Below, piece by piece: positions 3,577 through 13,914 of a stretch of 18,138 bases of DNA (positions within the stretch are counted from its first letter, which is position 1; every line of letters begins with the position of its first letter). The stretch is from the NCBI GenBank assembly GCA_044070495.1, contig JBIPSI010000054.1, forward strand, positions 1-18,138, in the 5' to 3' direction. The DNA comes from Spirulina sp. (lineage in GTDB: Bacteria; Cyanobacteriota; Cyanobacteriia; Phormidesmidales; Phormidesmidaceae). Both the position numbers and the translations under genes were made by a program. The notes below the pieces were generated by a model that was not told the DNA's origin, made no database searches, and saw only the letters and a list, made by a program, of their open reading frames with translations.

Positions 3577-3921
3577 ATGGATCGCACAATTGCAGAATTT
3601 AAGCTGGAAGACGGCAGCGACATCACCGTTCTGTTTGAGGTGCCGCCCCCCAGCACCGACAGCGCCCTAGAGGAGGTGAGCTTAAATGCGGGCAGGATGG
3701 TCTACCAGGCCACCCAAACCCTGGGGCAAGCCCTGGATCAGGTGCAGCCTGTGGCCAATGCCATCATTTCTCGGTTCAAGGCGGGGCTCACCACCCCAGC
3801 CGATGAGGTGGAGGTGAAATTTGGCCTTACCCTCAGTGCCGATGCGGGGGCGATCTTTACCGCCGTCGGGGGCGATGTGACCTTTGAAATTACCTTGAAA
3901 TGGGCAAAGGGCAGCGATTAG
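3577..3921 (+). CDS. Trypsin-co-occurring domain protein (Trypco1 / CU044_2847-like)
   Basis: 114 aa with DEVEVKFGLTLSADAGAIF...FEITLKW signature, 6 bp upstream of a trypsin-like protease. Confidence 0.75.
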   Translation: MDRTIAEFKLEDGSDITVLFEVPPPSTDSALEEVSLNAGRMVYQATQTLGQALDQVQPVANAIISRFKAGLTTPADEVEVKFGLTLSADAGAIFTAVGGDVTFEITLKWAKGSD

Positions 3922-3927
3922 GGACGT

Positions 3928-5082
3928 ATGACGCAACCCGTGACCGAAGCTCAGTATCTGGCGGCCATTGCCCGCATCTACCAGGGCAAGACGCCCATCG
4001 GCATTGCCTTTTGTGTGGCGGATGGTTATCTGCTGACCTGTGCTCATGTGGTGAGTAAGGCACTAGGGCATCAACGCAAGTCTTACCAAATTCCGGCCCA
4101 GGAGATGTTGGGGCAGAAGGTAGCTCTAGAGTTTTGTGGCGAGGGACAGGTGGAACGCCACCATGCCACCGTCGCTTACTGGCGCAGCCCAGCCCAGGAA
4201 GAACCGGGCACGACGGATGTGGATGTCGCCGTTCTCAAGCTTACGGAATCTATGCCTATCGGTGCTCGGGTGCTTAGCCTCACGAGTTTTCCGGAGTTGA
4301 AGGGACACACGTTTCTCGCATCGGGTATCCCGGAAAACGTTGCCGATGGCGCATGGTCTGAGGGAAAGATACAGGGGGCAACCCATAGCCGCGCCCTAGT
4401 ACAAATGGTGGCTGGCCCAGGCTATGCGATTGAACCGGGCTTCAGCGGTGCCCCAGTGTGGAGCCCATCCTTGGGGGATGCCATTGTGGGTATGGTGGTG
4501 GCCCGAGATAAGCAGCGAGAAGAGGAGAGAATTAGCTTTATGGTGCCAGCGGCGAGGCTTCAGCCAGCCTTGGCCGCCATTGGAATCGATATTTCAGCAG
4601 TTCAGTCGAGCTTACCTACTGCCATGCCTGCATCAGAACGGCTTCAACTCATTAACACGCTCAACAGTCTGCCTACGGTACAGTTTGAAACGTTGGTCAA
4701 CACTCTGAACCCACCTAGCGGCCTGATGCCCCCCAACAGTGCGCCCCAGGGGTTGCGTTCTTCGGCCTTATTGCAGTGGGTTGAAGGGCCAACGGGGCCA
4801 GGACTGAATGAATTGCAGGCAGGGCTACAGGCAATGGGGATTTCCACAACCGTCCAAGACTCTGTGCAACCAAACATAAACGGCATAAGCAAGACTTCAG
4901 AATCATCCAAAAAGGAGCGTCTTCGGAAAGAGATTCAATTATTGCAGGAACAACTAGAACGCTGTTTTGAAAAGCGCCTTTTGACGGACGATCCTGACCG
5001 TGAGGTCAAGCTAGAGAAGCTAGAGCAAGAACTGGAACAAAAAATAGCTGAGAAGCAGAGTGAGCTAGATGCCCTAGATTAA
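3928..5082 (+). CDS. Trypsin-like serine protease with two C-terminal helical adaptor (EAD-like) domains
   Basis: Catalytic triad motifs LTCAHVV, DVAVLKL and GFSGAPV. Helical domain at ~4636-4839 and a coiled-coil domain at 4909-5076 that recurs at the N-terminus of the next gene. Confidence 0.85.
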   Translation: MTQPVTEAQYLAAIARIYQGKTPIGIAFCVADGYLLTCAHVVSKALGHQRKSYQIPAQEMLGQKVALEFCGEGQVERHHATVAYWRSPAQEEPGTTDVDVAVLKLTESMPIGARVLSLTSFPELKGHTFLASGIPENVADGAWSEGKIQGATHSRALVQMVAGPGYAIEPGFSGAPVWSPSLGDAIVGMVVARDKQREEERISFMVPAARLQPALAAIGIDISAVQSSLPTAMPASERLQLINTLNSLPTVQFETLVNTLNPPSGLMPPNSAPQGLRSSALLQWVEGPTGPGLNELQAGLQAMGISTTVQDSVQPNINGISKTSESSKKERLRKEIQLLQEQLERCFEKRLLTDDPDREVKLEKLEQELEQKIAEKQSELDALD

Positions 5083-5123
5083 ATTTACTAACCCTTAAAC
5101 CATTCACATAAAGTCTAACAGCA

Positions 5124-6125
5124 GTGGACAAAAAAGAAAGGCTAGAGAAAGAAATTGAACAGCTCAAAGCAACGCTTGACAAGTGCTTTCAGAAGCGTCT
5201 GTTAAGTGATGATCCAGAAAAAGAAATTAAGCTTGAGGAACTGGAGGAAAGACTAGAGAGTCAGATTCGCGAAAAGGAGCGAAAATTATCCCATCTCTCA
5301 TCCTCATCCTCCAACCGAAACCGTGGCACCCTCACCCTAAAGGAAGAGCTTTGTTCTCTAGATTTTGATGAACCCAAGAAAGTTGTCCAGGACATCTTGA
5401 CATGCCTACACGAAAATGAAGGAGGCTCAGCTTTGCTTCTAGCGGAAAAATGCCTGGATATGGAAGGTGAACTCCTTCTAATTAAAATTCGAGATATTCT
5501 AAAATCAAACACAAGTCAGCTTATTGAATATCCTGTTCAGTTTATTCCTACAATGCCAGCCAATAGAATGGCTTTTCTCAAAACTATTGCTGGATATTTG
5601 GGTATTGATCTCCCTGTAACTGATGGGAATGAATCTGAGGATGAGTTGACCAAGGCTACTGAGAAGATTGTCGGAAAACTATCTGAGCGGTTGCGCTCTG
5701 GAACAACTATATTCATTCCAGTGGCAAACTGGAAAAGCTTAAGCTTAAGCTATCAATCTGTTTTTCTGGATTGGTTTATTTGTCAATTCTGGCAATCGCT
5801 AAATAGGTCGGTTTCGATGGCTATGAATGACTATTCTCCTAGGGTTTTCTGTATTATCATGGTCGATGAGTCGATGGCGGAAGCCTGTAAGAAAGCTGAT
5901 TACTTCTGTGATACGGCAGAATTTGACTGTAACAAGTTACTCATGCTGCCACTACGGTGCTGGACAAAGACAGATGTTCGACGTTGGCTCAGTAGCTATT
6001 CCTCAGAGATCAACAAGACAGAATGTAATCGATTGGTAGATTATATCTTTGGCAGCAAGGATGAGGAGTTGCCCTGGAAGGTTCGGGCTGAGCTTGAAAA
6101 AGCCCATGCGCAATCATGTTTTTGA
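5124..6125 (+). CDS. EAD-like N-terminal domain plus probable inactive STAND (iSTAND) NTPase-like protein
   Basis: GTG start. N-terminal 56 aa match the protease C-terminus. The remainder has LDF...LPLRCWTKTDVRRWL features and no intact Walker A, and lies directly upstream of MoxR and vWA genes. Confidence 0.6.
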   Translation: MDKKERLEKEIEQLKATLDKCFQKRLLSDDPEKEIKLEELEERLESQIREKERKLSHLSSSSSNRNRGTLTLKEELCSLDFDEPKKVVQDILTCLHENEGGSALLLAEKCLDMEGELLLIKIRDILKSNTSQLIEYPVQFIPTMPANRMAFLKTIAGYLGIDLPVTDGNESEDELTKATEKIVGKLSERLRSGTTIFIPVANWKSLSLSYQSVFLDWFICQFWQSLNRSVSMAMNDYSPRVFCIIMVDESMAEACKKADYFCDTAEFDCNKLLMLPLRCWTKTDVRRWLSSYSSEINKTECNRLVDYIFGSKDEELPWKVRAELEKAHAQSCF

Positions 6126-6142
6126 CGAACGATAGTAAACCC

Positions 6143-12471: not shown

Positions 12472-12473
12472 CG

Positions 12474-12710
12474 ATGAGTTCCCTAACTGTTTCTAGCGAA
12501 GTTCTTTCAGGGATCTCGGCCCTAGCCCAGCAGTTCAACCTAACCATAGAAGAACTTCTAACCTGGATTAGCCAAGGCAAGTTAGCGATTATTGACGCTG
12601 ACGAGCTGGAAGATTTGCTGGATGTTAGAGATGCGGTGATGGCAGAATCTGATCCCGAAAACCAGGAACGCATTCCCTGGGAAGTGGTGAAGCAGGAGCT
12701 TGACCTGTGA
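12474..12710 (+). CDS. Probable antitoxin, acidic, partner of the RelE-type toxin
   Basis: Acidic C-terminus [11 protein letters not shown]...[14 protein letters not shown]; overlaps the toxin start (GTGA). Confidence 0.75.
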
Positions 12711-12967
12711 GCCGTTACCGCATTGAATTTCTGAAAACGGCCCAAAAGGAGTTTCGGAAGTTACCCAAAGAGGTTCAACAACGCATGGCGGCCAAAATCG
12801 ACGCTCTCCAGGTTGACCCTTATCCTCCAGACAGCAAAAAATTAAAAAATGGCCATGGCCGTTTTCGGGTACGAGTTGGAGACTACCGAGTCATCTATCG
12901 CCCAGAAGATGATGAGCTGATTATCCTAGTCATCAAAGTTGGTCATCGTCGGGACGTTTACCAGTAA
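12707..12967 (+). CDS. RelE/ParE-family toxin
   Basis: 86 aa basic protein: [16 protein letters not shown]...KKLK...[12 protein letters not shown]...[11 protein letters not shown]. Confidence 0.9.
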
Positions 12968-12988
12968 TGTCAAACATAGCCCTAACCC

Positions 12989-13843
12989 ATGGCCCAACTC
13001 ACCCTTACCTACCACAAGGCCACAGCCCGATATTTCACCGAAGACCTCGGTAACAGTATCGGCCTCGATATGGTGCTGATTCCCGACGGCACCTTTTTGA
13101 TGGGTTCGCCCGAAGACGAGCTAGAACGCACTGACGCTGAAGGCCCACAACACGAGGTCACGGTGCCCACCTTCTTCATGGGCAGATTCCCCATCACCCA
13201 GGCCCAGTGGCGAGCCGTGGCCCAGTTAGAGCAGGTAGATCAAAAGCTAGACCCTGATCCATCCCGATTCAAAGGCGACAACCGCCCAGTGGAGCAAGTT
13301 TCCTGGTACGACGCTACGGAGTTTTGCGCCCGCCTGTCACAACTTACCGGACGAGACTATCGCTTGCCCAGCGAAGCCGAATGGGAATACGCTTGCCGAG
13401 CCGGAACCACCACCCCATTTCACTTTGGCGAAACCATCACAACAGACTTAGCCAATTACCGAGGGGTAGACGATGACAGTTTTAACTGGAAGGGTAACTA
13501 CGGCCAAGGCCCCAAGGGCATTTACCGCAAAGAAACAACCGAGGTAGGGAGCTTTCCTCCCAATGCCTTTGGGCTACAGGATATGCACGGCAACGTGTGG
13601 GAATGGTGCCAAGACCACTGGCACAGCAACTATGAAGGCGACCCGCCGACCGATGGCAGCGCATGGTTATTTTCTGCCGAGAGAAAAAGCAAGGATGATA
13701 TTTCTTGCGTGTTGCGGGGTGGTTCCTGGCTCTTCTTCCCGTGGAATTGCCGCTCTGCCTATCGCCTCAACAACAATCCGGACGCTCGCTACCACAACGG
13801 CGGTTTTCGTGTTGTTTGTTCTGCCGCCAGGGCTCTTCTGTAG
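12989..13843 (+). CDS. DGR target protein 2: stand-alone FGE-sulfatase (CLec-fold) domain carrying VR2
   Basis: Paralogue of the target 1 C-terminal domain ([27 protein letters not shown]); ends in VR2. Confidence 0.93.
13709..13840 (+). repeat. DGR variable repeat VR2 (including 3' IMH)
   Basis: Ungapped alignment to TR: 13 mismatches in the first 120 nt, all at TR adenines, plus AGG vs TR AGC at the 3' end (shared with VR1). Confidence 0.95.
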
Positions 13844-13914
13844 CCCTTTATCTATAGTACTCTTGCACTATACCCTTTCTTCTTTTCTCTCTTCCCTCGG
13901 CGCGAAGCGCCTCA
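13841..13914 (+). promoter_or_regulatory. Post-VR2 conserved tail: pyrimidine tract plus GGCGC-GAA-GCGCC hairpin (13899-13911)
   Basis: Near-identical to 10092-10166; stem identical and loop GAA instead of GTA. Confidence 0.75.

Follow-up and report, generated by a model that had tools for sequence, protein, structure and literature searches.

A Spirulina locus that probably joins an iSTAND-type MoxR-vWA conflict system to a diversity-generating retroelement

The 18,138-base contig analysed here (C54, called the window throughout) belongs to a Spirulina sp. genome of 5.3 Mb in 74 contigs. We believe, with a probability of about 0.9, that it holds a complete iSTAND-type MoxR-vWA ternary conflict system whose variable arm is diversified by a neighbouring diversity-generating retroelement (DGR). 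Six co-oriented plus-strand genes encode, in order, Trypco1, a trypsin-like protease, iSTAND, MoxR, a CoxE-type vWA protein and a protein that ends in an FGE/CLec domain (target 1). A complete DGR lies directly 3' of this operon and consists of the accessory protein Avd, a reverse transcriptase (RT), a template repeat (TR) and a second, short target. These operon and DGR features are far beyond chance.

The existence and the general reading of such systems are already known from comparative genomics. To this we add the synteny of the domain that opens target 1 (vWA-L), its predicted docking on the metal ion-dependent adhesion site (MIDAS) face of vWA, a model-based mapping of iSTAND and vWA-L on known folds, and a matched helical adaptor on the protease and iSTAND.

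Operon and retroelement

Gene identities were taken from a listing of open reading frames (ORFs) and from Pfam scans of the window proteins, together with NCBIfam and PADLOC profile scans (Table 1). An earlier note, made from the DNA letters, had named these genes, their order and a retroelement straight after target 1; the Pfam matches, ORF coordinates and junction sequences bear out all of its gene identities and the operon layout, with avd, RT and TR where it had put them. The two ATGA overlaps that it claimed are also present, one shared by the MoxR stop and the vWA start (7111-7114) and one by the vWA stop and the target 1 start (8223-8226). The iSTAND and MoxR genes overlap by 10 nt. Because of the ATGA junction with the MoxR stop, we place the vWA start at the ATG at 7111, coupled to MoxR; the start of the longest ORF, a TTG at 7081, is probably wrong. 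PADLOC assigned no operon protein to a known defence system and gave only generic RT and weak ATPase matches.

Table 1. Operon and retroelement features of the window, followed by neighbouring genes (E, expectation value; VR, variable repeat)
Feature	Position	Strand	Evidence or remark
Trypco1 (trypsin-co-occurring domain 1), 114 aa	3577..3921	+	PF19493 E 3.4e-22; NCBIfam CU044_2847 family 69 bits
Trypsin-like serine protease, 384 aa	3928..5082	+	Trypsin_2 E 3.1e-10
iSTAND third component, 333 aa	5124..6125	+	PF19995, 23.9 bits vs cut-off 24
MoxR-type AAA+ ATPase, 332 aa	6116..7114	+	AAA_5 E 7.6e-9, AAA families
CoxE-type vWA protein, 371 aa	7111..8226	+	VWA_CoxE E 5.9e-11; ATGA-coupled to MoxR
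DGR target 1, 623 aa	8223..10094	+	FGE-sulfatase E 7.6e-64, residues 374-615
VR1	9961..10081	+	11 mismatches to TR, 10 at TR adenines; target 1 residues 580-620 of 623
Hairpin over target 1 stop codon	10080-10098	+	Same hairpin at VR2 end
GC hairpin, then T-run	10151-10163	+	Repeated after VR2
Avd accessory protein	10345..10725	+	bAvd E 1.7e-19; NF033474 137 bits vs cut-off 80
DGR reverse transcriptase, 352 aa	10756..11814	+	RVT_1 E 1.4e-22; IGNLTSQ at 199, YVDD at 231
TR, 121 nt	11837..11957	+	27 adenines, 11 AAY codons
DGR target 2, 284 aa, FGE/CLec domain only	12989..13843	+	FGE-sulfatase E 9.3e-58
VR2	13710..13830	+	12 mismatches to TR, all at TR adenines; target 2 residues 241-281 of 284
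Inserted cassette, three small ORFs (114 aa, 80 aa, 86-aa ParE/RelE-type toxin)	12127..12967	+	ParE_toxin E 1.2e-14; RelE_StbE 30.4 bits
HerA-like ATPase	347-1531	-	PADLOC HerA 'Type III coevolved' E 7.6e-60
624-aa protein	1528-3402	-	Weak NurA match only, E 0.0074
TIGR04255-family protein	14965-15753	-	E 4.2e-37; two small unannotated ORFs downstream (window 14084-16521)
Uma2-family nuclease	15916-16521	-	Matches PADLOC candidate family PDC-S03

The three central proteins resemble those of an iSTAND-type ternary system: the MoxR and vWA genes are adjacent, the vWA protein is CoxE-like, and the third component is an inactive STAND protein. MoxR has Walker A (GEAGCGKT at residue 58) and Walker B (VVLIDE at 149) motifs, and vWA keeps the MIDAS residues D218..S222 and D291. 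iSTAND consists of an N-terminal helical hairpin adaptor (residues 3-60) and an inactive STAND nucleotide-binding domain (NBD) with a helical lid; a search for a Walker A motif in it found none. A VMAP-type ternary system was considered and is not supported. No VMAP-related Pfam family matched any operon protein at E up to 0.01 (the presence of a VMAP model in the library is unconfirmed), and a regular-expression search of MoxR did not find the VMAP-type N-terminal motifs WxhapG and PsWRxa. The nearest named homologues come from Leptolyngbyaceae, Nodosilinea and other filamentous cyanobacteria.

The protease keeps its catalytic motifs (TCAHV at 37, with H40; DVAVL at 99, with D99; GFSGAP at 171, with S173) in a domain that spans residues 27-213. 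This is followed by a presumptive adaptor without a family name (about 229-303) and by a C-terminal helical adaptor (328-384). The C-terminal adaptor and iSTAND residues 3-31 are identical at 19/29 positions (66%, E 2e-10), and tblastn gave 57% over 56 aa for the same pair (E 3.5e-13). Thus, one adaptor type occurs on both iSTAND and the neighbouring protease, which is the principle of effector-associated domains (EADs). The pairing proposed in the earlier note is borne out as a matching adaptor, which could not be placed in a named EAD family. The protease C-terminus matches EAD9 (PF19962) only weakly, at 8.7 bits against a cut-off of 25 (E 1.9, profile positions 4-62 of 62). Pfam found no EAD9 match at the iSTAND N-terminus, and BLASTP found no match between the adaptor pair and the EAD9 of a related locus, L036. 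In L036 and two other related loci (L032 and L033), the protease C-terminus is EAD9 at the same position, with E from 2.9e-10 to 1.8e-6. A Trypco1 gene lies 5' of the protease in these three loci as well, and also in L037, L043, L060 and L066.

The unnamed segment at protease residues 229-303 (window 4612-4836) is covered by no Pfam family and has eight paralogous copies in the genome. The carriers are NB-ARC/TPR (two), NACHT, CHAT, CHASE2, pentapeptide/TRADD-N and Clp_N proteins and one unannotated protein. Judged by this distribution, the segment behaves like an EAD, and through it the protease may be connected to, and serve, several other sensors. We also observed that G+C is 0.41-0.47 over window 4500-6000, compared with 0.55-0.60 on both flanks. 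This low-G+C stretch spans the C-terminal adaptor of the protease and iSTAND, as if the matched pair had been swapped in as a module.

The bounds of TR and the two VRs were set by a three-way alignment with a mismatch count at each position. Over both VRs, 22 of the 23 mismatches to TR fall at TR adenines. The 27 TR adenines are spread over 15 codons, none of which can become a stop codon, and from these codons about 10^15 protein variants are possible for each target. Target 2 is 75% identical in amino acids to the C-terminal domain of target 1. The RT carries the IGxxxSQ motif, which we take to be a mark of DGR reverse transcriptases. Beyond the VRs, an 80-nt stretch at 10096-10175 is 90% identical to 13844-13923. 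The hairpin over the stop codon is intact at both VRs and broken in the TR copy, presumably as expected of a recognition element on the target side. Judging from these sequences, an intact RT-Avd-TR cassette has rewritten the lectin-fold tips of two paralogous FGE proteins at TR adenines.

The window was also compared with sequencing runs of related strains, whose assembled contigs are fragmented around the VRs; the best DNA run shares 0.37 of the sampled words, and no RNA run was listed. In one of these (run X10), a contig joins 11219 to 11988, so that the 3' part of RT and TR are gone. This contig is without 11220-11987, and the retroelement is lost in some relatives.

The vWA-L domain and its predicted docking

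Target 1 has a helical N-terminal domain of about 220-250 aa, a linker, and the FGE/CLec domain (374-615) that carries VR1. Within the linker, between the N-terminal domain and FGE, a 34-nt repeat occurs three times at 68-71% identity (window 8769-9028). Residues 1-373 received no Pfam name, and a search of the N-terminal 376 aa at E up to 10 returned only a chance-level match to DHH_CID; in precomputed annotation, some homologues of the N-terminal domain carry PF26355. A database search found 280 homologues of this domain, nearly all cyanobacterial. In these proteins the first 240 or so residues are followed by FGE, caspase and TPR, alpha-amylase, nSTAND1, GUN4 or iSTAND domains. Passages of Kaur 2021 (eLife; PMC8195603) name a helical linker after vWA "vWA-L" and state that a minority of iSTAND systems have vWA-L and its C-terminal domains as a separate gene beside vWA. 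Judged by the authors' description and not by their alignment, the domain that opens target 1 agrees with vWA-L, and we use that name for it.

A match to vWA-L was found in 39 of 401 sampled genomes of the phylum, the window's own genome counted. We collected 20 kb around all 53 matches in the 38 other cyanobacterial genomes and mapped the window proteins on them. In 51/53 loci, vWA-L lies directly 3' of vWA on the same strand or is fused to it, and this is an addition to what was published. The two domains are fused in eight loci and split in 43, and 12 of the split loci have a 4-nt overlap as in the window. The loci with no adjoining vWA are L071, which is a fragment, and L053, where a gene for vWA-L plus GUN4 stands alone. 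MoxR is also there in 50/53 loci; the contig of L077, 2.5 kb long, breaks off inside vWA. We considered whether the split between vWA and target 1 is a frameshift artefact and rejected this because the same split recurs in 43/51 related loci and in a paralogous locus of the same genome (on contig C72, see below).

The C-terminal arm varies. FGE follows vWA-L in 30/52 ORFs, and there are at least 12 kinds of C-terminal domain overall; the others include CHAT, pentapeptide, TPR, FHA, NACHT, KAP, GUN4, TIR, SLH, CHASE2 and Roc-COR, and in four ORFs none was recognised. Avd or RT was found within the fetched 20 kb in 9/30 FGE loci and in 0/23 non-FGE loci. The ORF 5' of MoxR is iSTAND by Pfam in 38/50 loci, with EAD9, EAD1, EAD8, bDLD1, trypsin or caspase as its N-terminal partner; of the ORFs further upstream, 72/89 were scanned. 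L032, L033 and L036 keep the order of the window, from Trypco1 and a trypsin with C-terminal EAD9 through iSTAND to the vWA-L/FGE target, and L032 and L033 also have Avd, RT, TR and a second FGE target downstream. The earlier note had made its reading depend on the operon being kept together with FGE targets in other genomes, and it is so kept.

The earlier note had also proposed that vWA interacts with the N-terminus of target 1, and structure prediction agrees. The vWA protein (371 aa) and target 1 residues 1-220, each with a 30-row alignment, were modelled as a complex beside three controls. The interface score ipSAE was 0.80, 0.79 and 0.80, and the best of the three controls scored 0.00; the mark used for this score is reached by 116/157 solved complexes and by 2/215 mismatched pairs. 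In these runs the confidence score (pLDDT) of the partners was 80 or higher, and 64% or more of the contacts recurred between runs. The modelled interface involves vWA residues 221-228, 295-296 and 327-331, beside D218, S222 and D291, as well as the linker 141-158; on the vWA-L side it involves the conserved residues W60, L67, L68 and Y113. The model thus supports docking of vWA-L on the MIDAS face of vWA. Sequence profile searches of the PDB with the vWA and vWA-L alignments found no relative of either chain.

The predicted fold of vWA-L (pLDDT 92.7) starts like a winged helix and continues with helices. Foldseek gave no match in the PDB at E up to 0.001, and the fold signal comes from a wide VIA-align search. 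In that search, residues 5-141 aligned with MalT 246-368 (Z 11.3, root-mean-square deviation 2.7, 114 aligned), and vWA-L also aligned with the segments after the lid in CED-4, Apaf-1, plant NLRs, Avs3 and Cdc6/Orc1 (Z 5-8). The ESM Atlas independently returned WHD_MalT clusters and one fused FGE/VWA_CoxE cluster. The fold of the iSTAND model (pLDDT 84.1) matches Cdc6/Orc1, MalT, NLRs and Avs3 over their NBD and lid (Z 10.4-13.6); for instance, residues 73-333 aligned with MalT 12-235 (Z 11.4) and with Cdc6/Orc1 22-272 (Z 13.6). Both lists share eight solved STAND/ORC chains, whose matched segments adjoin (8bob_D, 2qby_A, 8dgc_A, 6j5t_G, 8rfh_A, 8y6p_Q, 2qen_A and 7tjf_D). Because helical domains can reach such Z values by chance, these shared matches are a lead only. 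The adjoining segments on the same eight chains hint that iSTAND and vWA-L might form one STAND-like module.

It is possible, then, that a single STAND/NLR-like receptor has been divided between two genes, with iSTAND as one half and vWA-L as the other, although we consider this doubtful. If so, iSTAND would provide a nucleotide-dead NBD and lid with an adaptor that recruits the effector, and the vWA-L protein would provide the winged-helix/helical segment and the C-terminal sensor, which here is a lectin domain hypermutated by the DGR. MoxR and vWA would have taken over the nucleotide switch that was lost, and the MIDAS face would hold the winged-helix half until ligand and ATP hydrolysis free it to complete the iSTAND core. 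The proteins P0081 and P0099 each carry a domain like vWA-L ahead of an iSTAND domain (Pfam) in one chain, a fusion that joins the two components that the idea pairs.

As in MalT, Apaf-1/CED-4, plant NLRs and Avs3, the modelled iSTAND would supply the NBD and lid, vWA-L the next winged-helix/helical segment, and a ligand-binding domain would come after it. A protease recruited by an adaptor would recall the apoptosome. In contrast to those receptors, the module here is split over two proteins, its NBD is without a P-loop, and the MoxR/vWA pair lies between the two genes. The likeness of vWA-L is purely structural, at Z 5 to 11 and with no sequence signal.

Published relatives, a second locus and neighbouring genes

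Passages of Kaur 2020 (eLife; PMC7159879) define iSTAND ternary systems, describe EAD coupling, pairs of Trypco and trypsin, and a link to DGRs, and report that FGS occurs most often on the vWA arm (22% of their set). As far as these passages and those of Kaur 2021 go, the window agrees with the published systems in its MoxR, CoxE-type vWA and inactive STAND component, in the matched adaptor on iSTAND and a nearby trypsin-like protease with its Trypco1 pairing, and in the FGS/FGE domain on the vWA arm, the DGR link and the separate vWA-L gene. We see no difference in kind. The adaptor pair of the window has diverged beyond what the Pfam EAD9 model recognises, and its protease has the second, unnamed adaptor shared with eight other proteins of the genome.

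According to passages of Dore 2024 (PNAS; PMC10907252), DGR targets in such loci are proposed antigen sensors that signal via MoxR to an effector, and some loci carry one long and one short target. The window has the same C-terminal CLec/FGE targets beside genes for MoxR, vWA, an adapter and a peptidase, and the proposed logic from sensor to effector would be the same. By layout it can be likened to the cyanobacterial RT clade 5E and to the two-target arrangement of clade 5A, with a long N-extended and a short CLec-only target. In those passages the N-terminal extensions were left without a predicted domain, whereas here the extension contains a conserved domain whose tie to vWA is seen in synteny, in fusions and in the complex model. 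Additionally, passages of a 2025 study in mBio (PMC12691664) report that, in Nostoc punctiforme, the expression levels of CHAT, MoxR, VWA and a DGR target are correlated, and also report mutation specific to adenines.

With the canonical DGRs, Bordetella phage BPP-1 (Mtd) and Treponema (TvpA), the window shares RT, Avd, TR, VR and adenine-specific mutagenesis, as well as an AAY-rich template and a VR at the C-terminus of a CLec/FGE domain. It differs in that its target looks cytoplasmic and lies in an operon of ATPase and protease genes, whereas theirs are a tail fibre or a surface lipoprotein, and in that a single TR here serves two VRs.

The same genome contains a paralogous second locus. 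Contig C72 (1-5047, minus strand) encodes an iSTAND protein (34 bits), MoxR, vWA and a vWA-L/FGE target, and the DGR part, with Avd, RT, TR and a short FGE target, lies at the start of contig C15 (274-3118); the two parts are loci L092 and L093. The TR of the second locus matches both of its own VRs at 88-90%, and C72 and C15 probably adjoin.

Between TR and target 2 of the window is an inserted cassette with a ParE/RelE-type toxin gene; in L032 and L033 the second target follows only about 280 nt after TR. The stretch from the cassette through target 2 is bracketed by a 68-nt direct repeat (12144-12211 and 13988-14055, 79% identical). In three runs, contigs of related strains join 12198 to 12460 and leave out 261 nt of the first cassette ORF. 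On the other side of the operon, the divergently transcribed HerA-like pair at 347-3402 may be a separate defence-type module. The remaining neighbours are listed in Table 1.

Signalling model, rival readings and meaning

We favour a sensor model, like that put forward by Dore 2024, in which the lectin tip binds a foreign ligand, MoxR and vWA act as a switch, and iSTAND recruits the protease via its adaptor. Target 1 would attach by its vWA-L domain to the MIDAS face of vWA and be kept in a complex with MoxR, vWA and iSTAND. A foreign ligand on the hypervariable lectin surface may alter the contact between vWA-L and vWA, and the complex would then be remodelled by ATP hydrolysis of MoxR. This would allow iSTAND, as a nucleotide-dead STAND core, to assemble and to bring in the trypsin-like protease by homotypic pairing of adaptors. 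The protease, with Trypco1 as its partner or substrate, may stop the growth of the infected cell or kill it. Target 2, the short one, may be a free binder, independently diversified and of the same specificity class. As a whole, we give this model a somewhat better than even chance.

Several points weigh against our reading of the locus or against this model. The window iSTAND scores 0.1 bit below the PF19995 cut-off. Twenty iSTAND homologues were found at 46-66% identity, and we consider the borderline score settled because 35/36 members of the homologue alignment (A4) match PF19995, with a best E of 7e-35. The adaptor of the window is not recognisable as EAD9, as described above. Because a hairpin and T-run follow target 1, the sequence suggests that avd and RT are on a separate transcript from the operon. 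VR1 and VR2 carry three identical substitutions (A-to-C, A-to-T and A-to-T at TR positions 11857, 11860 and 11861), which were possibly inherited from before the duplication of the target. A literature search found no experimental work on iSTAND systems, on vWA-L or on the present locus. In other loci the position after vWA-L is filled by usual effector domains (CHAT, TIR, NACHT, Roc-COR and pentapeptide repeats), which fits Kaur's view of that arm as the effector side. The direction given in the earlier note is the one hypothesised by Dore 2024, whereas Kaur 2020 assigned the parts opposite roles, and we rate the direction of signalling in our model at no better than even.

The strongest rival takes this opposite polarity, which is the model in passages of Kaur 2020 and 2021. 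iSTAND, maybe as a nucleic-acid receptor, would sense the invader, MoxR and vWA would form a threshold switch, and the protease, brought in by the adaptor, would cut the vWA/vWA-L arm; the FGE domain would then be a deployed, antibody-like binder that neutralises or traps molecules of the invader, and not the trigger. In 22/52 loci the domain after vWA-L is not FGE, and classical effector domains such as those just named, and others, stand there; the free target 2 would also be sensible as a soluble binder. Against this, the sensor of a canonical STAND protein is the domain after the winged helix, and the vWA-L and FGE arm maps onto that position. Moreover, a lectin-fold binder has no obvious killing activity, unlike a protease. 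We regard the reversed polarity as unlikely, though worth keeping in view.

A role outside immunity seems to us distinctly improbable. The system could tune endogenous signalling or programmed cell death of a filamentous cyanobacterium in response to kin, surface or environmental ligands; Vallota-Eastman 2020 proposes the tuning of regulatory pathways for cyanobacterial DGR targets, and the window holds no phage-related gene linked to the operon. The variable parts of the system, however, are typical of conflict systems (in relatives, protease, caspase and TIR modules replace one another and occur with EADs and death-like domains), and its neighbours are of defence type (the HerA-like gene, the Uma2 protein that matches PADLOC PDC-S03 and a toxin-antitoxin pair).

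There is similarly little chance that the DGR is a recent fossil, with VR differences from past mutagenesis and sensors that are now fixed: the substitutions common to both VRs, the X10 contig and the toxin-antitoxin cassette inserted between TR and target 2 could be read in this way, but none of Avd, RT and TR is truncated and the catalytic motifs are kept, VR1 and VR2 differ at further adenine positions, and the hairpins at the VR ends are preserved at both targets.

The earlier note had considered the mechanism uncharacterised, and we likewise found no mechanistic experiments in the literature. It overrated the novelty of the locus, since the architecture, including a separate vWA-L gene, and the co-expression in Nostoc are already published.

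The mechanism of this class is so far a proposal, and the locus offers concrete handles on it. Because it is compact and complete, and because a paralogous sister locus exists in the same genome, we consider it a good test case. The predicted interface of vWA with vWA-L and the idea of a split STAND receptor supply specific residues and protein pairs. If that idea were true, the locus would encode an NLR-type receptor of bacteria whose sensor is somatically diversified and whose AAA+ timer is external. If the proposed sensor model is true, such systems would be the closest thing in bacteria to an anticipatory receptor repertoire, with about 10^15 possible variants per target wired to a cell-death protease.

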